A stretch of 64,000 bases of DNA from a virus, in the IMG/VR virus record IMGVR_UViG_3300005805_000050, positions 1 to 64,000 of that record; one strand, 5' to 3'. Within the stretch, counting starts at the first letter, position 1. Each line of letters opens with the position of its first letter. The notes under the pieces are model-generated. The model was not told the DNA's origin. It saw only the letters and a program-made list of their open reading frames with translations, and made no database searches. A program made the position numbers and the translations under genes. This document shows positions 14,167 through 41,538 of the stretch, piece by piece.

Positions 14167-14808
14167 ATGACACTAATCGATTTTTGGAATTATCACGACC
14201 CGCTTAACACATATCCAACAGATAAAGCGCGGGTGCACGACTACATACAGTTTAGCTATAGCCCAAAATTTAGTCACTTACAAAACGAACCCATAAAAAT
14301 ACTAGAAATTGGAGTGTTGCAGCTCCATTCGATGAGATTATGGAGAGATTATTTTGTAAATGCTGAAATATTTGGAATGGATAATAACAACGAAGAGGGA
14401 TTGTCCGATTCCCAGATGGAAAAATTCAGTGACTATAATTCGCAAATAAAGTATAGTGACGATTTAGTGCTCGGTACCCGAATATACTTGTGCAATGCAT
14501 ATTCTCAACCGGCATTAGATCTATTTGCAAACGATTACTTTGATTTCATAATAGACGATGGATGTCACGATTTGTGGGCTAACTTGTATACAGCAGAACA
14601 TTGGTTACAGAAAGTAAAACCTGGAGGCTACTTAATCATAGAAGACATACAAGATTTTAGCACCAATCACCTAACATTAGAAAAATTGAACGATGAAATG
14701 TGTTTAGAAAAATATGTTTTGGATAGGAGAGATTACCCTAACGCCACAAATAGAGTTCCGGGATCTTACAGGTGGGATAATGTTTTGATAGAGGCCAAGA
14801 GAAAGTAG
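14167..14808 (+). CDS. Class I SAM-dependent methyltransferase, sugar O-methyltransferase (MycE-like) type
   Basis: TDK..HDY, KILEIGV, FDFIIDDGCH, KPGGYLIIED. Confidence 0.75.
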   Translation: MTLIDFWNYHDPLNTYPTDKARVHDYIQFSYSPKFSHLQNEPIKILEIGVLQLHSMRLWRDYFVNAEIFGMDNNNEEGLSDSQMEKFSDYNSQIKYSDDLVLGTRIYLCNAYSQPALDLFANDYFDFIIDDGCHDLWANLYTAEHWLQKVKPGGYLIIEDIQDFSTNHLTLEKLNDEMCLEKYVLDRRDYPNATNRVPGSYRWDNVLIEAKRK

Positions 14809-14886: not shown

Positions 14887-17800
14887 ATGTCAAATCAATA
14901 TTTGAAATTACGCAGGAGCTCTGTTCCTGGTAAAATACCGACCGTAGACGCCCTAGACTTTGGGGAGATAGCGCTCAACACGTATGACGGATTCGCCTTC
15001 ATGAAGAAGTCGGGATCCTACGGAGAAGAAATTGTACAAATAGGAGGCGTAGCTTCTAACGTAGGCAGCTTTACGGGATCCTTCTCTGGATCTATAGTAG
15101 GATCTGGAAATTTTACGGGTTCTTTTACAGGATCATTTACGGGATCTCTACTCGGATCGGCATCATACGCGCTTAGTTCGTCTAACGCGTTAACAGCGTC
15201 ATATGCCCTAAACGCAGGAGTAGCGAGCTCATTTCCATTTACGGGCTCAGCAAGAATCACCGGTTCTTTAGATCTCACCGGATCGATACTAGTCACTCAA
15301 TCTTATATATCCACCGTAGATTGGATCGATTTCACTGTTCAACCTGGCAACCCTCCGTTTTTGGAAGGTAGAGTCCACTGGACAGATGTATCAAAAACTC
15401 TGGAGTTGGACACCGATGTCAATAACTTCTCTATACCCGTGGGCCATGCTAGTGTGCTTAGAGGTAGAAACACCAACTCGTTTACTCTCACCAAGGGCAC
15501 GGTAGTATACATAAACGGCAACTCGGGTCAGTTTCCCACTCTTGCAACGGCAAGCTGGGAGAACGACCCAAATTCTGCTTACACCATAGGCATCGTAGCG
15601 CAGGACATAAACACCAACCAGTACGGCTACGCTGTAACCGACGGGGAGATTAGGGGCATAAACACCAACGCGTACGCTCCATCTACCCTATTGTACCTCT
15701 CTGCATCGGGACAATACACGGACCAAGTACCTGTAGCGCCTCTCCACACTGTTAGGTTGGGACAAGTGGTAGTGCAGTCCACCGACGGAATCATACAGGT
15801 AAAGATCGACAACGGCTACGAGCTCAACGAACTACACGACGTGCTCGCACAGACCACTTTCACGGGAGATTTATTAGTGAGAAGCGGAAGTTTGTGGATC
15901 AACTCTAAGCAGTTAACAGGATCTTATGGTTTAACAGGAAGTTTATCAATATCAGGATCAGGCATAATAGGAACTTCTAGTTTCGCTACCTCTGCGTCTT
16001 ACGCATTTAGCTCGTCGTATTCACTCAGCGCCTCATACGCCCAATCATCTTCCCACGCGATAACTTCCTCTTACGCTGTATCGGCTTCTAACTCATTAAC
16101 AGCCTCTTACAGCATAACGTCTTCGTACTCTGTAAGCTCATCATATTCAATATCGTCTTCCTTTGCTATTACTTCTTCATACGGAGTAACTGCATCTTAT
16201 TCGATAAGTTCTTCAAACGCTGTAACGTCCTCTTTTGCTACAAACGCATTAACTGCTTCTTACGTAAATCCTTTATCACAAAGCGTATTGATAACAGGAT
16301 CTTTAATCGTAACAGGCAGTGTAAGTACAAATTTTGGTTTCACTGGCAGTTTATTAGGTACGGCGTCATATGTAACTGGATCCATACACACTTCAACTAA
16401 TCCTGCGCTCAGCGCATCTTATGCATTAACATCGTCTTACTCAATAAGCTCATCTTATGCCGTAACTTCCTCAGCGGCCATTAGCTCATCTTATTCATTA
16501 ACTTCATCTTTTGTAGCTAATGCATTAACAGCGTCATACGTAAATCCTCTAAATCAAGGTACGGTGACTGTAAGCGGAAGTTTACAAGTGACTGGTAGCG
16601 CTAGTTTTACAGGATCTGTGAGTGTTACAGGAGGAGGATTTACAGGAAGTTTGTTTGGCACAGCATCATACGTAACGGGTTCTATACACACTTCTGCGAA
16701 TCCTGCGCTCAGCGCGTCGTATGCACTAACAGCGTCTTATGCCCAAAGCGCATCATACACAATATCGTCTTCTAATAGTTTAACTTCGTCGTATTCGATA
16801 TCTTCTTCTGCGGCGATTACATCTTCATATGCCTTAACGTCTTCATTCGTAGTTAATGCATTAACTGCATCCTATGTAAATCCTCTAAATCAAGGTGTTG
16901 TAACTGTAAGTGGAAGTTTACAAGTGACCGGTAGTGCTGGTTTTACAGGATCTGTGAACGTTGTAAACGGCGGATTTACAGGTAGCTTATTTGGTACAGC
17001 TTCGTATGTAACGGGTTCTATACACACTTCTACCAATCCTGCGCTTAGCGCGTCGTATGCTTTAACATCTTCTTACGCAGTAAGCGCGTCTTATGCTCTT
17101 ACATCTTCGTATTCGATATCATCATCGTATACACTAAGTGGATCTTATGCGTTGAGTTCCTCATACGCGTTTACGTCCTCTTACTCAATCACGTCTTCGT
17201 TAGCAACTTCAGCTTCATACGCAGCGACTGCATCGTTCTTAAATAGTTTAAGTCAAAGTTTAGTAATAACAGGATCTTTAATAGTTAGTGGATCTCCAAA
17301 TCCTGAGATACGCATAATAGGAGAAACCGAATTTACTGGATCTGTGAAATCCTTGAATGGATACACAGGATCACTATTTGGTACGGCGTCGTACGTAACG
17401 GGATCAATATTTACATCAACAAATCCTGCGCTATCCTCATCTTATGCATTAACAGCATCTTACGGGATATCATCGTCTTATGCACTTAGTTCTTCGTATG
17501 CACTTACTTCCTCTTATGGAATTACATCTTCGTACGGAATCACATCGTCCTATTCGATAAGTTCATCGTATTCGTTTAGTGGATCTTATGCTGTTACGGC
17601 ATCATACGCTCTTAACGGAGGAGGATCTTCTACGATAACCGTAGCTGATGAAGGAGACGCGAAAGGAACAGCCACATTTATAAATTTCGTAGGTTCGGGA
17701 GTAACAGCTACCGTATCCTCAAATACAGCATCCATCAATATCGACGGTGCTGGAGGGTCAGCTTTCCCCTACACAGGTTCCGCTAGAATTACTGGATCTC

Positions 17801-18657
17801 TAGATATCACTGGATCTTTGTATGTTAGTGGAACACTGTACGGCGATGGCAGTGGATTAACCAATCTAGGATTTGGAAACACACGTAAACTAATACAATC
17901 TGTAGCTGCAAATACGTGGTCATTTGCTCACAACATGGCTGAGCAGTATCCCGCGGTGACAGTATACGACAATAACAATAATGTAGTAGTTCCAGGTAAA
18001 ATTGAAGCTGTAGACTCTAATAACATAAAAGTCTATTTTGATAATGCCCAAGCAGGAACTCTAGTAACAGTTGTAGGAGGAAGAGTAGAAACAGGCAGCG
18101 TAGCGAAATATGTACAATCTAGTCCTTCGACTCTTTGGACATTCAATCACAATCTCGGAGAGAGGTACGCTATAATAAATGTGTTCAATGACACTGGAGA
18201 TGTAGTCATTCCTGGTAGAATAGAGACCGTAGACACTAATACTGCAAAAATACACTTTGACATAGCCCAGACAGGAACAGCCGCGGCTCACGTCGGTGGT
18301 ACAGCGTTAACCGCGTCTTTTGCAAACACGATTGTTGTAGGATCTACTTTATTAGAAACACAACAAAATAGCGATGTAGATACTGGAACTGAAATAGTGG
18401 CTACCGTTTATACTGGATCTTATGGAGCTGCGTTCTTTGACTATTACGTAAACGACGGCAGTAATTATCGTGCAGGTACAGTAATATCTACATGGAATAC
18501 ACTGGGAACAGCGACATATGTGGACAACTCAACAAACGATATTGGAAACACGGATGGAGTGATATTTATTGTAGATATCAATGGAGATACCGCAAGACTA
18601 AAAGCCACCGTAGACAGCAACAACTGGAACATAAAAACATTCGTAAGAGCAATATAG
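14887..18657 (+). CDS. Long tail fibre-like protein with Ser-rich repeats
   Basis: N-terminus LKLRRSSVPGKIP...GEIALNTYDG resembles the T4 gp37-type fibre N-terminus. Central xSSSYA and TGS repeats; two tandem W.F.HN...Y..V.V..D modules; C-terminal beta domain. Confidence 0.75.
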   Translation: MSNQYLKLRRSSVPGKIPTVDALDFGEIALNTYDGFAFMKKSGSYGEEIVQIGGVASNVGSFTGSFSGSIVGSGNFTGSFTGSFTGSLLGSASYALSSSNALTASYALNAGVASSFPFTGSARITGSLDLTGSILVTQSYISTVDWIDFTVQPGNPPFLEGRVHWTDVSKTLELDTDVNNFSIPVGHASVLRGRNTNSFTLTKGTVVYINGNSGQFPTLATASWENDPNSAYTIGIVAQDINTNQYGYAVTDGEIRGINTNAYAPSTLLYLSASGQYTDQVPVAPLHTVRLGQVVVQSTDGIIQVKIDNGYELNELHDVLAQTTFTGDLLVRSGSLWINSKQLTGSYGLTGSLSISGSGIIGTSSFATSASYAFSSSYSLSASYAQSSSHAITSSYAVSASNSLTASYSITSSYSVSSSYSISSSFAITSSYGVTASYSISSSNAVTSSFATNALTASYVNPLSQSVLITGSLIVTGSVSTNFGFTGSLLGTASYVTGSIHTSTNPALSASYALTSSYSISSSYAVTSSAAISSSYSLTSSFVANALTASYVNPLNQGTVTVSGSLQVTGSASFTGSVSVTGGGFTGSLFGTASYVTGSIHTSANPALSASYALTASYAQSASYTISSSNSLTSSYSISSSAAITSSYALTSSFVVNALTASYVNPLNQGVVTVSGSLQVTGSAGFTGSVNVVNGGFTGSLFGTASYVTGSIHTSTNPALSASYALTSSYAVSASYALTSSYSISSSYTLSGSYALSSSYAFTSSYSITSSLATSASYAATASFLNSLSQSLVITGSLIVSGSPNPEIRIIGETEFTGSVKSLNGYTGSLFGTASYVTGSIFTSTNPALSSSYALTASYGISSSYALSSSYALTSSYGITSSYGITSSYSISSSYSFSGSYAVTASYALNGGGSSTITVADEGDAKGTATFINFVGSGVTATVSSNTASINIDGAGGSAFPYTGSARITGSLDITGSLYVSGTLYGDGSGLTNLGFGNTRKLIQSVAANTWSFAHNMAEQYPAVTVYDNNNNVVVPGKIEAVDSNNIKVYFDNAQAGTLVTVVGGRVETGSVAKYVQSSPSTLWTFNHNLGERYAIINVFNDTGDVVIPGRIETVDTNTAKIHFDIAQTGTAAAHVGGTALTASFANTIVVGSTLLETQQNSDVDTGTEIVATVYTGSYGAAFFDYYVNDGSNYRAGTVISTWNTLGTATYVDNSTNDIGNTDGVIFIVDINGDTARLKATVDSNNWNIKTFVRAI
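15975..17612 (+). repeat. xSSSYA hexapeptide arrays with higher-order units
   Basis: The unit G[FY]TGSL[LF]GTASYVTGSI.TS.NPALS.SYALT starts at about 16336, 16636, 16972 and 17359. Confidence 0.85.
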
Positions 18658-20111: not shown

Positions 20112-20119
20112 ATATTTAT
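20112..20119 (+). promoter_or_regulatory. ATATTTAT motif (putative late promoter)
   Basis: 5 nt before ATG 20125. Confidence 0.65.
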
Positions 20120-20124
20120 AATAT

Positions 20125-23076
20125 ATGCCAACATTTTACGTAAGCAGCGGAAGTATAGATAAACTTGAAGTATCAAGCAGTCTAGTTGTATCCGGATCCC
20201 TAATAATATCGGGAAGTCTAACTACACAGGGAGGATACACAGGATCTTTTCAAGTCTCTGGATCCGCAATAATTTCTGGCTCTACAAGTCTTAACGGATA
20301 TCTACAGCTCGATCCCACAAAAGATCCGGGTACATCTAACTTAAGCTCATCATTCTTTTTTGTATCCTCTTCAGCTGATAACAACGAGTTTAATTTACAC
20401 TATAGAAATAATGGCGCTCTGTGGGAGATGCACTGGTTGGAAGAACAAACAGGAACTGGATTGGTTTGGGGAGGAGACGTGACCTTTACTGGAAGCATAC
20501 TAGACACACCTCCCAAAGCCACAGAGATAAGAATATCCCCAGGGGCGGGATTGATAGTTAATTACAATGCTAGCACCTCATCTCACGGAGACACAACGGC
20601 CACTTACGTACAGTTTGGTCCTATAACGCAAAGTCTAAAGACTGATATAGAATCATCTCAGGTTGTATACTTGTTAATAGACGAAAACGGAAATTTAGTT
20701 AGACAAACGACTGTATATACTCCTGAGCAATTCACCACAAAGTTTCCGTTAGGCTACATATTTGCATTGACCACAGATAATATAAGTTCGTACGCTGACT
20801 CTAGAGTTACAACTTACGGTCAGGTAGATCAACAAACTCAATTTTTACGGGCGTTCGGCCCTCTAAAATTGAGTGGAATGGATATCACCGCCCAACCTAG
20901 CAGTCTAAAGATAGATATCGCCGCTGGTAGAGCTTTTAGACACGGAGGATTTTACAAACAGGATCCTCAAAATCCTTCCACTTACGATTCCTCTGTGATA
21001 TACACAGGAAGTTTAGTTAGGGTATACAGAGACCCAGGAGTTGTCGGAGGTTTTAGAGCGGCTACTAATGCAGGTTTACCGTATACAGACATAGATCCCA
21101 CCAAATACGACGATGGCAGTGGCACACTACAAACAGTAGGAGCAAGCGAGTGGACAATTCAACGTGTATTCCAAGGCGTAGTAAACGGAATATCCTACGT
21201 ATATTACGGCCAAAGTGTATATTCAAGTCTCGCTCTTGCCTTGGGAGCGATAACTACTGATAATTTCCAAGAATCCCCCACCAGTATACTGTCTTTGCCC
21301 TTTATAGGATACATAGTCTGTAGAGGTAACACGACCGATTTGTCGGATACAAACGATAACCGGATCATAAACTCAGGTCTTTTTAGAAACACCGCAGGCG
21401 CTTCCGGTGGAGGAGGAGCAGCTGCTCAAGCACTAGATGACCTTTCGGACGTAACGATAACCGGAGTTCAAAATGGTCAAGCGCTAGTATACAACACCGG
21501 ATTGTGGATAAATGGAAACCCAGCTACTGCATCTTACGTAACTGGATCGGTGTTCACAAGCACAAATCCGGCTTTGAGTGCTTCTTACGCTTTAACTTCC
21601 TCCAATTCTTTAACCGCGTCTTATGCGCTGAATGCAGGTTCCTCTACGGCTCTCACTATAGCCGAAGAGGGAAATTCCCTTGGAACAGCGGAGTTTATCA
21701 ATTTCATTGGATTAGGAGTCACTGCTACAGTATCTTCTAATACGGCATCCATCAATATACCGGGTGGATCCGGAGAAGCATTTCCCTATAGCGGTTCAGC
21801 AAGAATAACGGGTTCTTTAGGTGTAACAGGATCGATACAGGGGGACGACGGATTAAAAGTGCTATCCGTTACAGCGTCTTTTGTATCGGCTTCTTCGATG
21901 ACTGGTAGTCTATTCGGCACCGCGTCTTACGTTACAGGATCGATATTTACCGACGGTAACCTGGCTCTCTCTGCTTCATTTGCCGTATCAGCAGCATACG
22001 CACCGGGTGGAGCAGGCCTCAGCGGAGGACAAGACAAATACATCGCTCGTTGGGACAGCACGACTTCAATCACAACCAGTTCGCTTTACGAAGGAGATAA
22101 CAAGAATATCGGAGTAAATGTTACAGCGTTCAACGTCACGAATCCCGAGGCGCTAAGGGTTTCTGGATCCACAATCAACGTCATAAGTGGAGAGTCGAAC
22201 ATAGACACGTACACGCAGCTCAACATAGTAAACAAGAGCACCGGTACAAACGCCTCTTCCGACATCGTGGCCACCAACAACACAGGAAACGAGACCGGTA
22301 ACTACGTTGACCTTGGCATCAACGGCAGCAATTACGCAGCAGCATTCGTAGGAGTGGCCAACGAAGCCTACCTGTACAACACAGGTTCCAACTTTTTGAT
22401 AGGAAACATCACAACGGGACCCAACGCGAACCTCAAACTTTTCGCCGGCAACAACGCCACTGTCTTCCCGATTGTCGTCACGGGCTCTAATGCTATAATA
22501 ACAGGGTCCGTTACAGGATCGTTTAAGGGAAATCTCGCTGATCTCACGCAACACCTTAAAATAACCGGATCGTTGATTGTAACAGGATCGAACGGAGCGT
22601 CAGAATTCACTGTTGTAGGACAGAGCATATTCTCTGGTTCGGTAGTAATAGAATCTCCGCTACCATCAGAATTGGATTTTAGAGTTGTAGGCGGAACTCA
22701 AATCACAGGATCTCTCATAGTTTCAGGATCTAATGGAGCAGGAATATTCTCTAAGGGCGCAACTATTGCTGATCTAACTAATACATTCACGATCACAGGA
22801 TCTTATCACGTTTGGAGAGCCCCTTATTCTGCATCTGTAGTCGCTCTTTACGCGTTCAAGTCCGGAAGTAACAACGTACAAGTAAACGCTAGAAGAAGTG
22901 GATCAGCGGCTACACAACACTTAGCTACTAATTTAACCGTGACAAACGATAATCAATGGACATCTGGCGGTACTGTACAAAACGTAAACTATGCTCCCGG
23001 CGATGGCCTAGAAATAATCATATCAGGTAGTACACAGTATCAAGTGTCAGTACAAGTAGATTTCATAAAGAAATAG
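20125..23076 (+). CDS. Tail fibre / virion appendage protein
   Basis: Dense [ST]GS motifs, an LDDLSDVTITGVQNGQALVYN repeat typical of fibres, and modules shared with both upstream fibre genes. Confidence 0.65.
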   Translation: MPTFYVSSGSIDKLEVSSSLVVSGSLIISGSLTTQGGYTGSFQVSGSAIISGSTSLNGYLQLDPTKDPGTSNLSSSFFFVSSSADNNEFNLHYRNNGALWEMHWLEEQTGTGLVWGGDVTFTGSILDTPPKATEIRISPGAGLIVNYNASTSSHGDTTATYVQFGPITQSLKTDIESSQVVYLLIDENGNLVRQTTVYTPEQFTTKFPLGYIFALTTDNISSYADSRVTTYGQVDQQTQFLRAFGPLKLSGMDITAQPSSLKIDIAAGRAFRHGGFYKQDPQNPSTYDSSVIYTGSLVRVYRDPGVVGGFRAATNAGLPYTDIDPTKYDDGSGTLQTVGASEWTIQRVFQGVVNGISYVYYGQSVYSSLALALGAITTDNFQESPTSILSLPFIGYIVCRGNTTDLSDTNDNRIINSGLFRNTAGASGGGGAAAQALDDLSDVTITGVQNGQALVYNTGLWINGNPATASYVTGSVFTSTNPALSASYALTSSNSLTASYALNAGSSTALTIAEEGNSLGTAEFINFIGLGVTATVSSNTASINIPGGSGEAFPYSGSARITGSLGVTGSIQGDDGLKVLSVTASFVSASSMTGSLFGTASYVTGSIFTDGNLALSASFAVSAAYAPGGAGLSGGQDKYIARWDSTTSITTSSLYEGDNKNIGVNVTAFNVTNPEALRVSGSTINVISGESNIDTYTQLNIVNKSTGTNASSDIVATNNTGNETGNYVDLGINGSNYAAAFVGVANEAYLYNTGSNFLIGNITTGPNANLKLFAGNNATVFPIVVTGSNAIITGSVTGSFKGNLADLTQHLKITGSLIVTGSNGASEFTVVGQSIFSGSVVIESPLPSELDFRVVGGTQITGSLIVSGSNGAGIFSKGATIADLTNTFTITGSYHVWRAPYSASVVALYAFKSGSNNVQVNARRSGSAATQHLATNLTVTNDNQWTSGGTVQNVNYAPGDGLEIIISGSTQYQVSVQVDFIKK

Positions 23077-23077
23077 T

Positions 23078-23845
23078 ATGGCATTAGTTTCACAATCGTT
23101 TTCAACTGTAGGTACATCGTCTTTTTACGTTCCTGAGGGCGTAAAATATGTTCAAGTTAGAGCTTGGGGCGCAGGAGGCGGTGGAGGTGGAAAAACGAAC
23201 ACCAACGGAACTGCCGGAGGTGGCGGGGGCGGCGCATACGTTTCGGGCGCGCTGAACGTTTTTCCTGGTCAAATACTTTCTATAGTTGTCGGAGCCGCGG
23301 GCACCGCAGGTCCCGCTTCAGACACTTCCGGTGGCCCAGGAGGATTCTCGTATGTGACCTCATCCGCGGATCCTAATATATTTGTTAGAGCGGATCACGG
23401 TGAACCTGGAGGAGGTGGAGCAACTGGCGTAGGAGGTCCCGGAGGAGCAGGATCGGTGTGTCTGACAGGAAGCGCTGAGGTCGGAGGATTCGCATTTAAT
23501 GGAGGATCAGGATCTGTTGGCTCTGCAGCTACAACTGGCTCAGGTGGAGGAGGAGGAGCGGGTACTAGAGGTCAAGGTACTAGAGGCACGGGCTCATTAG
23601 AAGGATCTGGAAGCGTGGATTACGGGGGTAACGGAGGCCGCGGAGCATCTAACGCAGCAGGTGGTGCAGCAAGAACAACATCTGGATCTTTTAACGTATA
23701 CGGTGGTGGTGGAGCGGGTGGTTCTAGATCTGCCGGCGGCGCCAAGGCAGGTGGAGCTGGAAGACAAGGATACGTTGAAATTTATTACACGACATTAGAT
23801 ACTCAACCCGTATTTATACCATGGATTGACGACGAAGAATACTAA
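23078..23845 (+). CDS. Glycine-rich (polyglycine II type) fibre-tip / adhesin-like protein
   Basis: FYVPEGVKYVQVRAWGAGGGGG, repeated GGGG/GGAG motifs, ending GYVEIYY. Confidence 0.7.
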   Translation: MALVSQSFSTVGTSSFYVPEGVKYVQVRAWGAGGGGGGKTNTNGTAGGGGGGAYVSGALNVFPGQILSIVVGAAGTAGPASDTSGGPGGFSYVTSSADPNIFVRADHGEPGGGGATGVGGPGGAGSVCLTGSAEVGGFAFNGGSGSVGSAATTGSGGGGGAGTRGQGTRGTGSLEGSGSVDYGGNGGRGASNAAGGAARTTSGSFNVYGGGGAGGSRSAGGAKAGGAGRQGYVEIYYTTLDTQPVFIPWIDDEEY

Positions 23846-23887: not shown

Positions 23888-24337
23888 ATGGCAAACGAAT
23901 TCATAGCAAGGAACGGAATAATAGCTAGAAGCAATTCCGTAATCACAGGATCCCTATCGGTGAGCTCGTCTCTGGCAATAGGCAACATACAACCATCAGC
24001 AACTATAGGCAGATTGGACGCATCGAATGACATCGTAGCATTCAATAGCTCAGACATAAGATTCAAAACGAACATAAAACCCATAGAAAATGCTCTTGAA
24101 AAAGTGGAGAGCATAAACGGAGTAGAGTTTGATTGGATACCTGATCCTATAAATCACGGATACGAGGGACACGACATAGGTGTCATAGCTCAGGAAGTAG
24201 AAAAGGTGGTTCCTGAATTGGTTAGAACTAGAAGCACGGGATACAAAGCCGTCAAATACGACAAGTTAGTAGCTGTACTTATAGAAGCAATCAAAGAACT
24301 AAAGAAAGAGATCGATAATCTGAAGAAAGGGAAGTAA
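23888..24337 (+). CDS. Mini-fibre with peptidase S74 intramolecular chaperone domain
   Basis: SSDIRFKTNIKPIENALEKVESINGVEFDW, HDIGVIAQEVEKVVPELV, AVKYDKLVAVLIEAIKEL plus a terminal coiled coil. Confidence 0.9.
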   Translation: MANEFIARNGIIARSNSVITGSLSVSSSLAIGNIQPSATIGRLDASNDIVAFNSSDIRFKTNIKPIENALEKVESINGVEFDWIPDPINHGYEGHDIGVIAQEVEKVVPELVRTRSTGYKAVKYDKLVAVLIEAIKELKKEIDNLKKGK

Positions 24338-24339
24338 TC

Positions 24340-27300
24340 ATGCCGATACCCGCTTCAGGTCCTATATCGATGAGTATGATGAATACGGAGTTGGGTTTGA
24401 TACCCAATGCTCCGGTATCCATACTCGCTGGAGGTATAGTGCCTATACAGGGATCTTTATTTTGGTTGGGAGGACAAAGCGGCAGTTTGAATCAAACCGC
24501 CCCTCACGCATTTAGCGAATGGTATAATTACGCGCCTAATAATTCTCCTACTCCTACGCCTTCTTACACTCCTACACTGAGCGTAACTGCTACAATAGGC
24601 GCAACTCCCACAAGGACTCCAACAATAACTGTAACTTCTACGGTGTCTGTGACGCCTACAATAACAGTCACTTCAACGACATCTGTTACCGCAACGATCA
24701 GCGTTACACCAACACGAACCATATCAGTGACTTCGACGCCTACAATAAGCGTGACGTCTACTATAAGTGCTACGCCTACGTCTACTATTAGCGTTACTCC
24801 AACCCGTACTATAAGCGTAACTTCTACAATAAGTCAAACTGCAACTATTAGCGTAACTCCGACTTCTACGATAAGTGTTACGCCCACTAGAACCATATCT
24901 GTAACGCCCACTATAAGTGTCACACCCACAATCACTGTATCTGCGACAGCTACTATATCAATAACCCCGACATTCAACAATTCGGTCACAGCGACTGTAT
25001 CTGTTACGCCTACAATATCTGTTACACCCACACGAACCATAAGCGTAACAGCAACTACATCCGTTACGCCTACTATTAGCGTTACTTCCACTATAAGTGT
25101 TACTCCTACGGTTAGTATTACATCTACTATTTCTGTAACTCCTACTATCACTGTAACCGCAACAGTATCAAATACGGCCACTATCAGTGTTACTCCAACA
25201 ATATCAAATACAGCAACTGTAAGCGTTACTCCCACAAGAACTATTAGTGTCACTCCTACTCAAACCATAAGCGTTACTCCTACAATAACTGTCACATCGA
25301 GCATTTCAGTTACTCCAACTATAAGTGTGACCTCCACAGTATCAGTAACTGCAACCATTAGTGTTACAGCGACAATATCTGTGACGCCAACTTCTACTAT
25401 CAGCGTAACTCCTACATCCACGATAAGTGTCACTCCGACAATAACTGTAACTTCTACGGTATCTGTAACGCCTACTATTAGCGTTACTTCTACCATCAGT
25501 GTCACTCCTACGATCAGCGTTACATCCACTATAAGTGTTACTCCTACAGCTACAATAAGTGTAACGCCTACTAGAACAATTAGCGTTACTCCTACAATAA
25601 CAGTAACTTCTACGATAAGTGTTACCCCAACAGTATCTGTAACTCCTACAATCACTACATCTGCAACAGCCACTATATCAGTAACGCCCTCATTCGTTAA
25701 TTCAGTCACAGCGACTGTATCTGTTACGCCTACAATATCTGTTACACCTACTCAAACTGTGAGCGTTACGCCCACAATAACCGTAACATCTACAGTCTCA
25801 GTTACGCCTACAATAAGTGTTACATCTACTATATCAGTTACTGCTACAATAAGCGCAACAGCGACAATATCAGTAACTCCCACAAGAACTAATAGTGTCA
25901 CTCCCACATCGACAATTAGTGTCACTCCTACAATTAGTGCAACATCAACCGTATCTGTAACTCCGACGATAAGCGTTACTCCCACTGTATCTGTTACTTC
26001 CACAATTAGTTCTACCGCAACTGTAAGCGTTACGCCCACTTCAACTATAAGTGTAACACCAACTTCTACGATATCCGTCACGCCCACTATTAGTGTAACT
26101 CCGACTTCAACAATAAGTGTAACTCCGACTTCAACAATAAGTGTAACTCCGACCGTAAGCGTTACTTCAACCGTATCAGTTACACCCACTTTAAGTGTTA
26201 CATCCACAATTAGCGTTACTGCCACGGCTTCTGTTACTCCAACGATCAGTGTAACCCCAACGCAAACAATCAGTGTAACTCCGACTTCTACAATCAGTGT
26301 AACGCCTACTATTAGTTCCACGCCAACAATAAGCGTAACTCCGACAATTACAGTTACCTCCACAGTATCCGTTACTTCTACTATAAGTGTAACTGCGACT
26401 ATTAGTGTAACTCCTACATCGACAATATCAGTTACTCCCACAAGAACTATCAGTGTTACGCCGACAATAAGTTCTACAGCGACGATATCTGTTACACCCA
26501 CATTAAGCGTTACATCAACTATAAGTGTTACTCCCACGATCAGCGTTACATCGACTATAAGCGTTACTCCTACAGCTACAATATCAGTTACTCCTACAAG
26601 AACTATATCGGTAACACCTACCATAAGTTCAACAGCTACAATAAGTGTAACTCCGACCATCAGTTCTACAGCCACTATTAGTGTTACTCCCACCATATCA
26701 ACAACGGCAACTATAAGTGTTACTCCAACTAGTACTATTAGCGTAACGCCCACTAGGACAATCAGCGTTACGGCAACCATAAGCAATACTCCAACAATTA
26801 GTGTTACACCGACCATAAGCGTTACTCCAACCATCAGCGTTACATCTACCATATCAGTAACAGCAACAATCAGCGTAACGCCAACACAAACAATCAGTGT
26901 GACTCCCACTAGCACTGTGTCGGTTACATCAACAATCAGTGTGACTCCCACAATAAGCTCCACTGCAACTATAAGCGTGACTCCCACGATTAGTGCTACA
27001 TCGACGATCAGTGTAACACCGACCTCTACAATATCTGTAACTCCAACTTCGACAATAAGCGTTACTCCCACCCGTACGATATCAGTTACCCCTACAATCA
27101 GTTTTACGGCCACTATCAGTGTGACTCCTACCATAAGTTCTACAGCCACCATCAGCGTGACTCCTACTATATCTGTTACGGCTACTTCGACAATCAGCGT
27201 AACGCCAACCAAAACCATAAGTGTAACACCTACAATAACTGTTACTTCGACCATAAGTGTTACTCCAACAGTGTCTGTTACTTCCACCATAAGCGTTACT

Positions 27301-30300
27301 GCTACTATTAGTGTTACTCCTACTCGCACTATATCAGTTACTCCTACGCAAACCATTAGTGTAACAGCAACTATATCAGTTACTCCGACCATCAGTTCTA
27401 CAGCCACCATCAGCGTTACACCCACTATCTCCTCTACTCCTACAATATCAGTAACAGCAACTATAAGTGTAACACCAACTTCAACTATTAGCGTTACGCC
27501 CACTAATACAATCAGCGTTACACCTACTATATCCGTCACCTCTACAATTAGTGTAACGCCCACAATAACTGTTACTTCGACAATATCCGTAACTCCTACA
27601 ATTAGTGTTACGTCCACCATAAGTGTTACTCCCACCCAAACCATTAGTGTTACGCCTACAAGCACCATATCCGTAACACCTACAGTTAGTGTGACTCCTA
27701 CCATAAGTTCTACAGCTACTATATCTGTAACGCCAACAATTTCTTTAACGCCTACAATAACTGTTACTTCCACCGTAAGCGAAACTCCCACAGCTACAAT
27801 ATCAGTGACGCCTACGGTATCTGAGACGGCAACGGTAAGCGTGACTCCAACAGTTTCAGAAACCGCTACTGTGAGTGTGACCCCTACCGTGAGCGTTACT
27901 GCTACTATAAGTGAAACTCCAACCCCTACAATATCTGTAACGCCTACGATAAGTCCTACTAGAACTACGACAGTTAGCATTACTCCTACGATATCTACAA
28001 CTCCACAAGTGCCAGCAGTGTTGTTCGATGCATCTACCCAATCAACGCGTACAGCGACAACCGATCCATACTCTTTCTCTCACACTCCAGGAACCGATCC
28101 TAATGGTATATTGTTGTTCGCGATAAACTACACTACGGCGACGGATCAAATATCTACCGTCGATTATGGAGGCGTAGCTCTCACAAAAATCACAGGAAGC
28201 GTAGATACCACTGGAGAACCATTTAATACTTCCGTCTGGTTTGTAGGTTCTCAAGTACCGGTGGGAACTCAAAACATGAACATAGACTTTACCACTGCAA
28301 CTAACGATGATTATTGGTTTGTAGCAGCGACAGTTTATTCTAATAACGGATACGATATAGCGGTATACGATAGCGCATCAATTAGTAATGACGTAGCGAA
28401 CCCACAAGACACACTAACAACAGGAGGAAACAACTGTTTAGCATTCTGCGCAATAGCATCAGGCCTGGCTGCCCCGGGCAACTTAACTATATTGGCAAAC
28501 ATGACAGCTGATGAGTCTATTGACCTTGGCGCTGAGGTAGCAAGGGTGGATAGACAGACTACCGCATCTACCTCTAACTTTACCATAGGTTACACCGCAG
28601 CGATCGATGACGTAGCATTTGTAGCGTTGAACCTGTATCCAGTAGTTCCTCCTACACCGACTCCTTCACCAAGCATATCTGTAACTCCTACGATATCAAG
28701 AACGGCTACTATATCCGTTACTCCAACGGTGTCCGTCACTTCTACAATTTCAGTAACAGCTACAATATCCGTAACGGCTACGATAAGTGTCACTCCTACA
28801 ACAACCATAAGCGTCACCCCTACTCAAACAATAAGTGTAACACAGACAATCAGCGTTACTCCAACAATATCAGTCACTCCCACTATTACTGTCACCTCTA
28901 CTATTAGTGTAACTCCGACAATAAGTGTTACTCCAACCTTATCAGTAACTCCCACAATATCGGTTACTCAGACAATATCAGTTACCCCTACGAGAACTAT
29001 AACAGTAACGTCAACGATATCAGTTACACCCACAATAAGCGTCACCCCCACTCAAACAATATCTGTTACTCCTACTAGAACTATAAGTGTAACGTCAACT
29101 ATATCAGTAACTCCAACTTCCACAATAAGCGTAACTCCTACGAGAACTATAAGCGTAACACCTACAATAACTGTTACATCTACGGTATCTGTCACTCCTA
29201 CTATATCCTCAACTCCTACGATATCAGCAACTCCTACCGTAAGCGTTACGCCTACTATAACTGTTACTTCGACTATTAGCGTTACGCCGACTCAAACGAT
29301 AAGCGTAACACCCACTAGAACCATTTCTGTTACATCCACAATAAGTGTGACACCTACAGTGTCTATAACTCCCACTATAACAGTAACGTCAACGATAAGC
29401 GTTACTCCAACAATATCTTCAACGCCTACAATAACTGTTACTTCGACTATAAGCGTTACTCCGACAATAAGCGTCACAGCCACAATATCTGTAACTCCTA
29501 CACAGACCATCAGCGTTACCCCCACAAGAACGATATCAGTTACTTCTACCGTATCAGTTACTCCCACAATAACTGTAACTTCTACTATAAGCGTTACTCC
29601 TACTGTTAGTGTGACATCCACTATATCTGTAACACCCACCCAAACTATTAGCGTAACCCCCACAAGAACGATCAGTGTTACTTCAACAATCAGCGTAACG
29701 CCTACTTCAACCATAAGTGTTACACCAACTAGAACTATAAGCGTAACTCCGACGATATCTTCAACTCCTACCATAACAGTAACAGCAACAATATCTTCAA
29801 CGCCTACAATAAGTGTAACACCTACAATTAGTTCTACGGCTACAATCAGCGTTACTCCAACAATATCTTCAACGCCTACAATAACTGTTACTTCGACTAT
29901 AAGCGTTACTCCGACTCAAACTATAAGTGTAACTTCAACAATTAGCGTTACTCCAACTAGAACCATAAGCGTTACTCCTACGCAGACTATATCAGTAACT
30001 CCAACGATAAGTGTAACTTCAACAATCAGCGCTACTCCTACGCCGACTATTAGTGTGACATCTACAATCAGCGCCACTCCTACACCGACTATAAGTGTCA
30101 CTTCGACGATATCAGTTACGCCTACTAGAACTATAAGTGTCACTTCGACGATATCAGTTACGCCTACTAGAACTATAAGTGTCACTTCCACAATCAGTGT
30201 TACGCCTACTTCAACCATAAGTGTTACACCAACTATAACTATTAGTGTGACATCTACAATATCAGTAACTCCGACTTCTACGATAAGTGTTACACCAACT

Positions 30301-37529: not shown

Positions 37530-39149
37530 ATGGCAACAATATCGTTTTACGGATCTCATAATGCGGCGTATGTAGTAGAGTCAGGGGGCAAAATCTTACT
37601 CGTATTAGAAGCTGAACGTTTCCTGAATTACAAGAATTCGGGCATCGCTCAGTATATGTGTCCGAAATCTACTGAAATTCTGTTTTTAGCGGAGTATATT
37701 CCTAGGTGGATAATGAGGAAACTGAATATCGACGAATTTGAGACTTGTTACTTTTCGAACACCGACGTCATAATGGATGAAAACAGGTTTAATCTACAAA
37801 AGACTATACCAGCAAAAAAATACGTTCAGTGTTTACACCACGAATCCCACGCAGGTGGATCATTTTATCAATCTTCCTTCAAAGAAGCCCTAATATTTTC
37901 ATTTGATGGAGGAGGAAACGATGGAAAGTTTTGTGTATACACGTGTAAGAGAGGCGAGTCTCCAAAACTACTAGAACAAGTACTAAATCCAAAATACAAC
38001 AATCCCCATATTCATTATGATCTAGGATTTCCGTATATGATATTCGCTCATTTCCTAAAAGACATAAAACAAGAGGATTTGGGTATGGGAAATTTAGTAT
38101 ATCCTGGAAAGTTGATGGGCTTATCGTCTTACGGAAACGTGATAGAAGAGTGGTTGCCGCACTTCATAGAATTCTACAAAGACAGTCCAGAGGGTTCTAA
38201 TTATTTGGAAAAAATAACAGCACTAGGAAATAAAATAGACGTTACCTTTGATGCTTCTAACAGGTTAGATGGACAACTAGCTTATGATATAGCCGCTACA
38301 AATCAAAGAGCATTTGAAGATTGCTTTTTAGAGATAGCAAAACCATACATGGAAAAATATCCTAACCTGCCTCTGTGTATCACCGGCGGATGTGGCTTAA
38401 ATATACTATTGAACACCAGATTAGTAAACGAATTCAATAAAGAGGTTCACGTAGGACCAGATCCAAACGATTGCGGTATAGCTTTAGGAATGATGCTAAA
38501 CAGCTTAAAGCCAAATGAAGCATACGATAGCACGTATTCAGGCACAAATCTATTAGATATAGACAGTTTAGGTACATACATACAAAATAGTGCGTTTTAC
38601 ACCAAAACTAGACGTGTTAATATTGAAAAACTTGCTAAAGACATAGAATCAGGTAAGATTATAGGTGTTGCTCGAGATCGCGCAGAACACGGACCTAGGG
38701 CTTTAGGAAATAGAAGCATAATATGTAATCCAATAATATCTAACATGAAAGAGGTGTTAAACGATAAGGTTAAGCACCGAGAGTGGTATAGACCTTTCGC
38801 GCCTGTGGTTAGATTAGAGGATGTAAATAAGTATTTCGAATGGAATAAAGAATCCAAGTGGATGAGTTTTTGTCCACAAGTTAAGGAAGAGTGGAAACTA
38901 AAACTACCATCGATAACGCATGTTGACGGCACAGCAAGGGTGCAAACAGTCACTAAAGAGCAGAACCCGTGGTTGTATGAACTATTGACCGAATTTGAAA
39001 AGCTCACAGGCGTGGGAGTATTATTGAATACATCGTTTAACGTAGACGGAAAACCCATATTGTCTACAATAAAAGACGCTTTCACTATACTAGAAAAAAC
39101 TCAATTAGACGGCTTAGTTATAGAAGAATATTACATAAAGAAAAATTGA
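37530..39149 (+). CDS. O-carbamoyltransferase (NodU/CmcH/TobZ family)
   Basis: SHNAA, EAERF, HHESHA, FDGGGND, GKLMGLSSYG, GGCGLN, PNDCGIALG, EHGPRALGNRSI, KHREWYRPFAP, HVDGTARVQTV, LLNTSFN. Confidence 0.95.
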   Translation: MATISFYGSHNAAYVVESGGKILLVLEAERFLNYKNSGIAQYMCPKSTEILFLAEYIPRWIMRKLNIDEFETCYFSNTDVIMDENRFNLQKTIPAKKYVQCLHHESHAGGSFYQSSFKEALIFSFDGGGNDGKFCVYTCKRGESPKLLEQVLNPKYNNPHIHYDLGFPYMIFAHFLKDIKQEDLGMGNLVYPGKLMGLSSYGNVIEEWLPHFIEFYKDSPEGSNYLEKITALGNKIDVTFDASNRLDGQLAYDIAATNQRAFEDCFLEIAKPYMEKYPNLPLCITGGCGLNILLNTRLVNEFNKEVHVGPDPNDCGIALGMMLNSLKPNEAYDSTYSGTNLLDIDSLGTYIQNSAFYTKTRRVNIEKLAKDIESGKIIGVARDRAEHGPRALGNRSIICNPIISNMKEVLNDKVKHREWYRPFAPVVRLEDVNKYFEWNKESKWMSFCPQVKEEWKLKLPSITHVDGTARVQTVTKEQNPWLYELLTEFEKLTGVGVLLNTSFNVDGKPILSTIKDAFTILEKTQLDGLVIEEYYIKKN

Positions 39150-39150
39150 T

Positions 39151-40962
39151 ATGGCGGATTTAGAAAACATGGATGAAATCTTAAACCTATTGAAGGACCT
39201 GTCCAAAGAAAATTTGGATAGTGTTTTAAGTATGGCTAGATCTCTAAAGAAAAACAAAATGGAAATACAAAACAAGGAACTAACTCTAGTTACGGGATTG
39301 TGGAACATCAATAGACCAGGCCGTGATTTTTCTCACTACATAGAACACTTCAAAAAGTTCTTAGAGATACCTGTCAACATGTTTATATACATACCAAAGG
39401 AATACGAATATTTGGTGTGGGAAAAGAGAGATAGAGAAACCACATATGTAAAAAATTACGAACTACAAGACATAAAATCCTTATACGCTCCGTTCTGGGA
39501 CAAGACTCAGGCAATAAGAACAAATCACGAGTGGTTAAATCAAACCGGGGAGCAAGGTTGGTTAAAGGCTTCTCCACAGGCGGCTTTAGAGTGGTACAAT
39601 CCTATAGTGCAGTCTAAGATGTTTATGCTTAGCGACGCATCCATATGGGATCCGTTCTCCAGTGAGTATTTCTTGTGGTTAGATGCGGGAATTACTAATA
39701 CCGTGTGGGAAAACTATTTCATAAAAGATAGAGTTCTAGACAAGATCAATAAGCATTTGGACACGTTTCTATTCTTATCGTATCCTTATGAAACTAAAGA
39801 TGAGATTCATGGATTTAGAAAATCCGAAATGGATAGAATGTCTGGTAGAGATGTAAAATACGTTTGTAGAGGAGGACTTTTTGGAGGGAGAAAATCTCTT
39901 ATAAGGGATGCAAACGCAGAGTATTACGCTTTACTAGATTCCTCAATATCTAGAGGATTCATGGGAACAGAAGAGAGCATATTCAGCATAATGTCGTATT
40001 TGAACCCCTATAACTATAGGAGATACGAGTTGGATGCTAATGGGCTTATTGTCAAGTATATTCAGAACTTATTACAAGACACCGCAGAACTGTGTCCAAA
40101 ACCAGAACAGAATTATAAAATCAAAAATAACAATCCGCAAATAGCTGGACTCAAAACGTCTTTATACATGCTGACGTTTAATTTTCCTGAACAGGTGGAA
40201 TACACGCTTAATACATTTATGCAAAATTCTGCGGATTGGCTGGGAAAAACCAGGAAGATACTGATAGACAATTCTACTAACGATGAAGCTAGAATTAAAA
40301 ATCGAGAGATTGCCGATAAGTGGGGATTTGAACACATAATAAGAAACGAAAACACTGGCATAAATGGAGGCAGACTATTCGCAGCAGAACACTTCGATGC
40401 CTCCGACTCAGACTACTACTTCTTCTTCGAAGACGACATGGGATTACATCCTAACACCGAAGTGGGATATTGTAGAAACGGTTTTAGAAAGTATGTACCA
40501 AATCTGTACGATAATTTGCATAAGATTATGGTAAGAGAGGGATTTGACTTTCTAAAATTCTCATTTACAGAGGTGTACATGGACAATCACATACAAGTAT
40601 CCTGGTATAACGTGCCTCAAACTGTTAGAACAAGAGATTTCCCAGACTACGATAAGTTACCAATTACGGGCATGGATCCTAATACTCCAAGAACCAAGTT
40701 TGAAAACATAGACGTATTTGATGGATTAGCATACATAACAGGAAATGTGTACTATGCAAACTGGCCAACTATAGTTAGTCGAGAAGGCAACAAAAAGATG
40801 TTCTTGACGACCAAGTGGGAAAAACCTTACGAACAAACTTGGATGTCCTATATGTATCAACAGTACTTAGAAGGAAAAATAAAACCAGCTGTACTCCTAG
40901 CCTCGCCAGTAAATCATAATAGAATATCGCATTACAAACCAGAAGATAGACGAGAGAATTGA
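39151..40962 (+). CDS. HtrL/YibB-like domain fused to a GT-A (GT2-like) domain
   Basis: LTLVTGLWNINR, VQSKMFML, FLWLDAGI, CRGGLFGG, MGTEES; C-terminal LIDNSTN, INGGRLFAAEHF, YYFFFEDDM. Confidence 0.6.
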   Translation: MADLENMDEILNLLKDLSKENLDSVLSMARSLKKNKMEIQNKELTLVTGLWNINRPGRDFSHYIEHFKKFLEIPVNMFIYIPKEYEYLVWEKRDRETTYVKNYELQDIKSLYAPFWDKTQAIRTNHEWLNQTGEQGWLKASPQAALEWYNPIVQSKMFMLSDASIWDPFSSEYFLWLDAGITNTVWENYFIKDRVLDKINKHLDTFLFLSYPYETKDEIHGFRKSEMDRMSGRDVKYVCRGGLFGGRKSLIRDANAEYYALLDSSISRGFMGTEESIFSIMSYLNPYNYRRYELDANGLIVKYIQNLLQDTAELCPKPEQNYKIKNNNPQIAGLKTSLYMLTFNFPEQVEYTLNTFMQNSADWLGKTRKILIDNSTNDEARIKNREIADKWGFEHIIRNENTGINGGRLFAAEHFDASDSDYYFFFEDDMGLHPNTEVGYCRNGFRKYVPNLYDNLHKIMVREGFDFLKFSFTEVYMDNHIQVSWYNVPQTVRTRDFPDYDKLPITGMDPNTPRTKFENIDVFDGLAYITGNVYYANWPTIVSREGNKKMFLTTKWEKPYEQTWMSYMYQQYLEGKIKPAVLLASPVNHNRISHYKPEDRREN

Positions 40963-41001: not shown

Positions 41002-41283
41002 ATGGGATTCATATTCTTTACCGTCTTAGCGATATTCCTCGTAATTGCGGGGGTGTCCTACATATTCTACGTGAGTGACAAGAAAAAAGACGTGGAAATT
41101 CCTCCTGTGTTTGAAAATCCCATCATCATAGATCCTATCATAGAACCTTCACCTAAAGTAGAAACTAAGAAGATAATAGAAACTGTCGGCCTTCTTACTC
41201 AAGAGGATGTCATTGAATTAAAGAAGACGAAACCTGTAAGAAGAAAATCGGCGCCGAAAAAAACATCGAGAAAAAGAAAATAA
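41002..41283 (+). CDS. Small membrane-anchored protein with basic C-terminal tail
   Basis: N-terminal hydrophobic helix; ends KKTKPVRRKSAPKKTSRKRK; ATATTTAT upstream. Confidence 0.6.
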   Translation: MGFIFFTVLAIFLVIAGVSYIFYVSDKKKDVEIPPVFENPIIIDPIIEPSPKVETKKIIETVGLLTQEDVIELKKTKPVRRKSAPKKTSRKRK

Positions 41284-41289
41284 TAAGAA

Positions 41290-41538
41290 ATGTCAGAAGA
41301 GAAAAAAAGGTTATCTGATCACGAGTTACAGCTTGTAAATCTAATCAGACAAGATAGTCTGGAAGTTGCGTCAAGTCTTGGACAGTTGCAATACCAATAC
41401 ACTATAATCGAAGACCAGATTCAAAAACTAAAGAAGCAAGTTATAGACATTAAGACCAGAGAGTCCTCTCTATTAAAAGAATTACAGGATAAGTATGGAA
41501 ACGTTACGATAAATATTGAAACTGGAGAAATCGAATAG
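41290..41538 (+). CDS. Small coiled-coil hypothetical protein
   Basis: 82 aa heptad pattern ending KYGNVTINIETGEIE. Confidence 0.6.
   Translation: MSEEKKRLSDHELQLVNLIRQDSLEVASSLGQLQYQYTIIEDQIQKLKKQVIDIKTRESSLLKELQDKYGNVTINIETGEIE

Follow-up and report, generated by a model that had tools for sequence, protein, structure and literature searches.

A giant threonine/serine-repeat protein and an adjoining cassette with two GT60-type glycosyltransferases in an uncultured T4-like phage: a candidate mucin-type O-glycosylation system

Virion glycosylation by phage-encoded enzymes has been experimentally described in few phage groups. The present report is focused on a locus in IMG/VR virus record IMGVR_UViG_3300005805_000050, in which a giant open reading frame (ORF) for a threonine/serine (Thr/Ser)-repeat protein (24340-30894, + strand) is followed by eight genes on the same strand for putative glycan-active enzymes (30978-40962), referred to here as the cassette. 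Coordinates are those of the window, i.e., the whole stretch of 64,000 nucleotides that was analyzed, which opens a 122-kb IMG/VR viral contig of approximately 75% completeness; the same phage is also represented by a longer assembly of 177 kb. Fiber-type genes lie upstream of the block, the genes for the tail sheath, tube, and hub lie downstream, and the sheath is 48% identical to the sheaths of Flavobacterium phage immuto and Microcystis phage Mel-JY01; on account of these sheath relatives and this gene order, the phage is considered an uncultured T4-like myovirus. The sequencing runs containing phage DNA mostly carry lake-water or freshwater metagenome labels, with the top run labelled soil and one low-share run labelled marine, and no RNA run is listed among them.

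The repeat ORF is open over 2184 codons, and a scripted partition of its translation yields five parts. Briefly, an N-terminal module (residues 1-75; 24340-24564) with the motif PASGxISMS..ELG....SEWYNY is followed by a first repeat tract (residues 76-1221; 24565-28002), a central globular domain (residues 1222-1439; 28003-28653), a second repeat tract (residues 1440-2068; 28654-30543), and a Cys-containing C-terminal tip domain (residues 2069-2184; 30544-30894). The two tracts, of the form (X-[T/S])n, amount to 1,776 residues together. The first is built from VTPTIS, VTSTIS, and VTPTRTIS units with T or S in the alternate position at 570/573 sites, the second has T or S at 315/315 such sites, and the partner position is occupied by V, I, P, S, A, R, or Q. 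Repeat-unit lengths are nearly all even (6, 8, 12, 14), with one unit of 5 and one of 31 among approximately 220. At the DNA level the copies are 60-88% alike, the exception being one short 24-bp array at 100%, and all four Thr codons and all six Ser codons are used in the tracts; because the DNA copies are degenerate and the codon usage is complete, the repeat is preserved as protein sequence and did not arise through a recent expansion of the DNA. On the opposite strand of the repeat, long ORFs (e.g., 25752-27980, 742 aa) were considered as genes and rejected as a by-product of repeat composition. The N-terminal module matches no Pfam family (to E 10) and no PHROG, and its orthologs were collected with a hidden Markov model (HMM) of the module. 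The central domain, which is conserved in the close relative L006, matches the minor tail protein family phrog_2106 (E 1.3e-5) and no Pfam family (E up to 10), and the tip domain is weakly PKD-like (PF22352, E 2.5e-4, below the family cut-off); the tips of the close relatives L006 and L005 look different when compared by eye without alignment. Furthermore, matches were obtained between positions ~200-300 of phrog_15511, a phage family of unknown function, and the Thr/Pro/Ser repeats of ten separate ORFs, and proteins of cultured phages with such tracts are therefore already present, unannotated, in PHROGs.

The repeat gene ends 83 nt upstream of the first cassette gene, and the eight cassette genes follow one another with intergenic gaps of -8 to +4 nt. 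The motif ATATTTAT occurs at 18 sites in the window against 5.3 expected, a number reached by 0/100 shuffles; 16 of these sites are on the + strand, mostly before genes. They include 20112 before a fiber gene, 30943 before the first cassette gene (30943-30950, + strand, 28 nt upstream of its start), and 41560 before the sheath gene, and the tube gene is preceded by one as well. No ATATTTAT site is found directly before 24340, where the repeat ORF starts 2 nt after the preceding gene. A first-pass annotation of the window had described a 2184-aa ORF consisting mostly of TPTISV-type repeats, eight tightly packed or overlapping glycan-enzyme genes directly behind it, a position between fiber genes and tail sheath, and an upstream motif shared with structural genes, and the parity counts, gene gaps, annotation on both sides, and motif sites given above bear out this description.

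The first two cassette genes encode members of the glycosyltransferase (GT) family GT60. This family has been treated as a protist family, comprising polypeptide alpha-N-acetylglucosamine (GlcNAc)-transferases that start mucin-type glycans on Ser/Thr-rich domains (PMC8724618). In Trypanosoma cruzi mucins, GlcNAc is attached to Thr (PMC3769586), and the known GT60 acceptors are either Thr/Ser-rich mucin-type domains or the hydroxyproline of Skp1 (PMC3769586, PMC8724618). In the window, GT60-A (30978-32234, + strand) matches PF11397 with E 2.8e-72 (244.6 bits) and phrog_24687 with E 1.7e-142, and GT60-B (32227-33495, + strand), an old paralog that is 38% identical to A, matches PF11397 with E 4e-49 (168.4 bits), the curated cut-off being 21 bits. 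GT60-A has an extra C-terminal domain of ~110 aa. The two copies belong to separate orthologous lineages, and the B copy of the window shares 58-64% identity with B copies from distant loci. A DxH-type motif, Q91-L-D93-S-H95-H-R-F, is invariant in 17/17 A and B copies, and QLDSHHRF probably corresponds to the metal-binding catalytic site of the GT27/GT60 type. A sequence search of the Protein Data Bank (PDB) with GT60-A and a GT60 profile returned no solved relative. The Golgi mucin-type subgroup of GT60 carries a type II membrane anchor. Neither phage copy has one: the maximum 19-residue hydropathy is 0.62 and 0.76, respectively, and the Rossmann-type fold starts at residue 4. The predicted topology is accordingly that of the cytoplasmic, Skp1-modifying subgroup, and the phage enzymes, being soluble, would act in the bacterial cytoplasm. 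A prolyl 4-hydroxylase (PF13640), which would create the hydroxyproline acceptor used by that subgroup, was not found in the 122-kb record at its approximately 75% completeness. Solubility extends to the entire cassette, as hydropathy analysis reveals no hydrophobic segment in any of the eight enzymes.

The next four genes, u3 to u6, belong to orphan metagenomic families with no Pfam match at E up to 10 and no PHROG match, and PDB sequence searches with profiles of u3, u5, and u6 gave no usable match. The AlphaFold2 model of u3 (33492-34469, + strand; predicted local distance difference test, pLDDT, 86.8) has a GT-B fold, and its top Foldseek matches are SdgB, POGLUT1/2, and A075L (E 7e-5 to 1e-3); many GT-B enzymes, GT4 included, are tied at VIA Z 12-14, and T4 alpha-glucosyltransferase is also among the matches. 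The adjacent u4 (34474-35499, + strand) is a paralog 47% identical to u3 that matches the same relatives and is a GT-B protein by homology. A GT-A fold was obtained for u5 (35501-36670, + strand; pLDDT 84.3), a GT8-like protein of the retaining type, in which the DSD motif D118-S-D120 is invariant; its nearest structures are of GT8/GT24, and Foldseek returned XXYLT1, glycogenin, LARGE1, and UGGT (E 1e-4 to 1e-3, with template modelling (TM) scores of 0.2-0.47 only). The protein u6 (36674-37525, + strand), with conserved LDGxD and DDQ motifs, is a possible PLOD-GT-like GT-A protein, a lead taken from Atlas features and structure: 27/30 feature matches carry PF25342 (score 0.97, TM 0.56-0.63). 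The seventh gene (37530-39149, + strand) encodes a NodU/CmcH-type O-carbamoyltransferase matching phrog_1601 (E 5e-122), and both of its domains exceed the curated cut-offs (PF16861, E 3e-65, 219 bits versus 27; PF02543, E 4e-24, 86 bits versus 24); it is not a NodU equivalog (164 bits versus a cut-off of 1000). The last gene (39151-40962, + strand) encodes a 603-aa two-domain protein with an HtrL_YibB-like N-terminal half (PF09612, E 1.1e-7) and a weakly GT2-like C-terminal half (PF00535, E 7.7e-4, below cut-off). Of the gene families named in the first-pass annotation, the two GT60 proteins, the carbamoyltransferase, the HtrL-GT, and the DxD GT (here the GT8-like u5 with its DSD motif) thus stand; the GT90/CgeB-like pair is right as to the GT-B fold of u3 and u4, while GT90, to which POGLUT1/2 point, is inseparable from GT4 and other GT-B families; and the PLOD-like assignment stays a lead.

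The GT60 profile retrieved at least 588 viral contigs, and the association of GT60 with repeats of the above kind was evaluated in fetched loci, a parity tract being defined as a 30-residue window in which at least 14/15 alternate positions are S or T. An ORF with such a tract lies within 10 kb in 52/86 GT60 phage loci. Eighty loci around sheath relatives served as the control; among the 79 without any cassette gene, a parity ORF was found in one (Fisher p 1e-18). The repeat ORF is immediately upstream of GT60 and codirectional in 34 of the 81 loci that have an upstream neighbor. In larger GT60-positive records (105-233 kb, 2.6 Mb in total), 15/16 match the repeat, usually in several ORFs, whereas the larger control records (n = 19, 25-103 kb, 0.86 Mb) contain neither PF11397 nor any match to a 200-residue piece of the repeat. 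In the complete 183-kb record G020, from which locus L005 derives, the contig is permuted such that one part of the giant-ORF homolog lies at each end, and further Thr/Ser-repeat ORFs of 1194, 595, 324, and 318 aa are situated far from the cassette (120-126 kb).

The N-terminal module proteins offer a cleaner comparison, in which loci with and without the cassette can be set side by side. The module HMM finds orthologs directly upstream of the sheath gene in five GT60-less loci (L132, L137, L139, L147, and L170) and additionally in L006, L009, and L011. In L132, L137, L139, and L147 the module leads straight to a globular domain, with no repeat in the protein and no room for a cassette beside it, whereas in L009 and L011, whose GT60 is 48% identical, a short repeat protein (N-terminal module, TPSVTPS repeats, and Cys domain) stands immediately before the GT60 pair. 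In L170 (44-6883), the slot before the sheath holds a GT4, an FkbM methyltransferase, a sulfotransferase, an APS kinase, and a cytidylyltransferase-like gene, which suggests that sulfated glycans may be placed on the same fiber slot; the N-module protein there has a 22-residue poly-Thr linker. In this comparison, a hydroxyl-rich stalk thus appears in the N-module protein where a glyco-cassette adjoins it, and in no other case.

The composition of the cassette is graded among relatives. GT60-A, GT60-B, and the HtrL/GT2 protein (48-62% identical; the third core gene of the cassette) occur in all of the first eight relatives; the carbamoyltransferase is present in 5/9 loci, u3/u4 are patchy, u6 is found only in L006, and u5 in none. 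In the close relative L005, the carbamoyltransferase directly follows GT60-B. This would be the pattern expected of a conserved core for initiation and first extension combined with strain-variable outer sugars. Furthermore, 41 GT60 loci have both A and B and 43 have A alone, and the Ser share at hydroxyl positions of the tracts is 0.18-0.61 with B as compared with 0-0.28 in A-only loci (L005-L090; Mann-Whitney p 3e-9), values that fit a possible Thr/Ser division of labor between the two paralogs.

The bacterial contigs that additionally carry GT60-like genes with the same full-length architecture number at least 307 and come from many phyla. Of the bacterial GT60 loci, 22/80 contain parity ORFs, which in several cases (Gemmatimonas, Saprospiraceae, Vicinamibacterales) directly adjoin the GT60 gene. 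On a chromosome of Ralstonia sp. 25C (L263, 10270-13131, - strand), a type VI secretion system (T6SS) VgrG spike with a C-terminal (PT)n tail of ~120 residues lies ~1 kb from a GT60-like gene. In cultured phages, megablast of the cassette gave no match, and a protein-level GT60 homolog is confined to four jumbo Xanthomonas/Stenotrophomonas phages. One of these is XacN1 (AP018399.1), in which ORF334 is a 41.6%-identical GT60 homolog followed by a carbamoyltransferase, and TPT-type parity tracts occur in ORF180 (89435-93214), ORF190 (99915-100556), and ORF384 (272200-280671). These tract proteins are multi-domain, with domains joined by TPT-type parity linkers. Schiff-positive bands have been reported in XacN1 virions, and ORF328 and ORF334 were suggested by the authors to make virion glycoproteins (PMC5852040); the three tract proteins are candidates for the stained bands.

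The genes around the block are consistent with a structural module. Upstream, the first gene after the ATATTTAT site at 20112 encodes a 983-aa fiber-type protein (20125-23076, + strand), which has no PHROG match and whose homologs lie in the fiber region of relatives L006, L010, and L008. It is followed by a 255-aa protein with a tail-fiber-assembly/minor-tail-like domain (23078-23845, + strand; phrog_863, E 1.2e-8), and in L035 the domain of this protein is fused to a Thr/Ser-repeat protein. Next, a stand-alone protein of 149 aa (23888-24337, + strand) is homologous to the C-terminal domain of long tail fiber/baseplate wedge proteins. It matches 43 PHROG families (best phrog_8215, E 4.6e-45), specifically the C-terminal ~100 residues of those proteins, and its gene stops 2 nt before the repeat ORF; in L009 and L011, too, homologs closely precede the N-module repeat protein. 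Many of the neighboring fiber proteins are moderately Ser/Thr-rich. Between cassette and sheath, two small ORFs are each behind or near a ATATTTAT site: one of 93 aa (41002-41283), which has a strongly hydrophobic start (hydropathy 2.62) and is therefore a small membrane protein, and one of 82 aa (41290-41538) with weak, coiled-coil-type Pfam matches. Farther upstream, a 1256-aa ORF in the structural module (14887-18657) contains a short tract of the Ser-X type (16081-16160); toward the C-terminus it matches families of virion structural proteins and, at residues 1073-1132, a PHROG annotated as HNH endonuclease. No tRNA genes were found in the window, so that a phage supply of tRNA-Thr is not provided there.

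Taken together, we regard it as quite probable that the cassette glycosylates the repeat protein or proteins of the phage itself, late in infection and in the host cytoplasm. A very long fiber-like protein would be expressed late and coated with sugars before assembly. Its plan would comprise an N-terminal attachment module, two stalks in which T or S alternates with V, I, or P, a center resembling tail proteins, and a tip that varies. Glycans would be started on the stalk hydroxyls by the two soluble GT60 enzymes, GT60-A mainly on Thr and GT60-B mainly on Ser, and, judging from the family, probably with alpha-GlcNAc from UDP-GlcNAc; GlcNAc as the first sugar is somewhat more likely than not. 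The glycans would then be extended by the conserved HtrL/GT2 protein and by the strain-variable transferases (two GT-B, one GT8-like, and one PLOD-like), and the NodU-type enzyme would O-carbamoylate a sugar hydroxyl. The predicted product is an extended, stiff, protease-resistant, glycan-coated stalk, and 1,776 residues would, if fully stretched, reach an estimated ~0.4-0.6 micrometres and keep the central domain and the tip well away from the particle. The N-terminal module is probably the end attached to the virion, and incorporation of the repeat protein into the virion is likewise likely, with slightly less assurance than its glycosylation; the reading as a virion fiber is based on the operon position, the phrog_2106 match, the fusion in L035, and the differences seen by eye between tips. 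Such a stalk could serve adhesion, shielding, or capsule penetration.

Several elements of this scheme had been put forward in the first-pass annotation and have fared differently. Its placing of the glycosylation in the host cytoplasm fits the solubility of all eight enzymes, and the check that it had proposed, namely whether TPT-repeat ORFs and GT60-like genes co-occur and stay adjacent, came out strongly positive in phages (52/86 versus 1/79; 34/81 adjacent) and positive in bacteria also (22/80). The methylation that it had named beside carbamoylation finds no support, as the block contains no methyltransferase gene; the only candidate for such a step is a 213-aa methyltransferase-like gene in the structural module (14167-14808; phrog_21658, E 2e-13), 16 kb upstream of the cassette. 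Its statement that the pairing was undescribed for phages agrees with full-text literature searches, which returned no description of GT60 in phages and none of a mucin-like phage protein encoded together with genes for its glycosylation.

Certain observations weigh against the glycosylation of a virion stalk proposed here. Glycosylation is deduced from gene content for every member of the group, the GT60 assignment in the window is made by a match to the family profile, and membership of the virion rests on gene position and weak domain matches (phrog_2106, E 1e-5; PKD below cut-off). No repeat ORF lies within 10 kb in 34/86 GT60 loci, and the complete GT60-positive genome G031 shows no repeat at the threshold used. 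The control records fall short of the positive ones in both size and completeness, and the loci are phylogenetically non-independent; the p-values therefore overstate the evidence, although the contrast is still large. The link between the Ser share and the B copy may simply reflect a division into two clades. The GT60 gene of XacN1 is near those for DNA polymerase and RNase H and not beside a repeat protein, and the stained bands were reported without protein identity (PMC5852040). Finally, a 211-aa divergent gene of the thymidylate-synthase family (G000, 75990-76547; L183, 1423-2058), far below the ThyA equivalog cut-offs, could encode a dCMP or dUMP hydroxymethylase, so that the phage may also modify its DNA.

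These observations, together with the enzyme families, allow three other accounts of the cassette. The enzymes could act on a non-protein glycan, such as host lipopolysaccharide (LPS), capsule, exopolysaccharide, or a free polysaccharide, the T/S tracts then being plain proline/threonine (PT)-type linkers, which exist without known glycosylation. HtrL/YibB is named after a gene of the Escherichia coli LPS-core region (a matter of family name only), NodU-type enzymes carbamoylate oligosaccharides, and polysaccharide synthesis typically involves GT4-, GT8-, and GT2-like folds. We nevertheless consider this account improbable: membrane segments are lacking from all eight proteins, the block holds no gene for a flippase, a polymerase, or a lipid carrier, a lytic T4-like phage that expresses the cassette late would have little time to remodel the envelope, and precisely those orthologs whose loci lack the cassette have lost the repeat tract as well.

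Other virion proteins, i.e., capsid, tube, or fibers, could instead be the main targets, as in mycobacteriophages, where the account in PMC12619734 places glycans on the C-termini of capsid and tail-tube proteins. The GT60 loci without a nearby repeat ORF and the moderate Ser/Thr content of the neighboring fiber proteins would agree with this, and modification of such proteins is not mutually exclusive with glycosylation of the stalk. As the main function of the cassette, however, it appears similarly improbable, for it does not predict the strong adjacency and co-occurrence with parity tracts, and the known GT60 acceptors named above are of another kind. Least probable, by a small margin, is hypermodification of phage DNA, with a glycosylated and carbamoylated hydroxymethylated base and with the repeat protein as an unrelated neighbor: the thymidylate-synthase-family gene, the T4 alpha-glucosyltransferase match of u3, and the location of the XacN1 GT60 and carbamoyltransferase genes near DNA polymerase and RNase H speak for it, but characterized GT60 enzymes act on polypeptides (PMC3769586, PMC8724618), the cassette forms part of the late structural module and is preceded by the motif of the structural genes, the T4 enzyme is one of hundreds of generic GT-B matches, and the tie to T/S-repeat proteins in phages and bacterial chromosomes would be left without explanation.

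Glycosylation of the stalk, if extended beyond the window, leads to a broader proposition on which we are evenly divided: GT60 would represent an undescribed, widespread, soluble and cytoplasmic form of mucin-type O-glycosylation in prokaryotes and phages, acting on (X-Thr/Ser)n stalks of phage fibers, of bacterial surface or secreted proteins, and possibly of the T6SS VgrG tail, with paralogs split between Thr and Ser, and in the present phage it would produce a carbamoylated glycan brush on a tether of several hundred nanometres. In many loci of both phages and bacteria, the family stands beside ready-made proteins that resemble mucin-type acceptors. If correct, this would add a third prokaryotic route to dense O-glycosylation, beside the GtfA/SdgB systems and periplasmic oligosaccharyltransferases. 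The glycan coat of a freshwater phage could affect adsorption, stickiness to particles and mucus, protease resistance, and grazing, and soluble enzymes would become available for making mucin-like glycoproteins in E. coli. XacN1 offers a cultured model for the hypothesis.

Among known systems, the protist GT60 enzymes that initiate mucin glycans in T. cruzi and those of Dictyostelium share with the phage proteins PF11397 membership and a DxH-type motif, and the presumed phage acceptor is a Thr-rich mucin-like repeat, as in T. cruzi mucins (PMC3769586). Unlike the protist Golgi enzymes, the phage copies are soluble, lack an anchor, and would function in the bacterial cytoplasm, carry a conserved extra C-terminal domain of ~110 aa, and form two old paralogs. 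XacN1 has in common with the phage of the window a GT60 homolog with a carbamoyltransferase, TPT-type tracts, and Schiff-positive virion bands (PMC5852040); it differs in having a single GT60 copy near replication genes, and the bands were not linked to the repeat tracts by its authors. As summarized in PMC12619734, which cites Freeman et al. (2023), mycobacteriophages likewise modify their own structural proteins in the host cytoplasm with phage-encoded glycosyltransferases; unlike the capsid and tail-tube C-termini described in that account, the likely target here is a stalk of repeats, up to 1,776 residues in length, that is dedicated to this purpose, and the enzyme families (GT60, carbamoyltransferase) differ. 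In chlorovirus PBCV-1, soluble virus-encoded transferases, of which A075L is among the u3 matches, similarly build an atypical virion glycan without host machinery; by contrast with the phage, PBCV-1 is a eukaryotic virus with N-linked capsid glycans, no repeat stalk, and no GT60 initiator. In Gram-positive bacteria, serine-rich repeat (SRR) adhesins with GtfA/GtfB and serine-aspartate (SD)-repeat proteins with SdgA/SdgB carry a hydroxyl residue at every second position and are modified by dedicated cytoplasmic transferases, whose genes lie nearby and, in the SRR systems, directly adjacent. GlcNAc is added first and then extended, and the product is a surface fibril or stalk. The phage system has the same dipeptide-periodic hydroxyl repeat and adjacent dedicated transferases, and SdgB is the top Foldseek match of u3; unlike in SRR/SD systems, the candidate initiators are of GT60 (predicted GT-A class) and not of the GT-B-type GT4, the repeats are dominated by Thr with V, I, or P, no accessory Sec system is present in the block, and the carrier is a phage and not a cell wall. 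Because of its candidate GT60 initiators and the absence of secretion genes from the block, the phage system would work like the SRR/SD systems without being a member of them, and by analogy SRR and SD-repeat glycoproteins appear to be its closest functional parallels.

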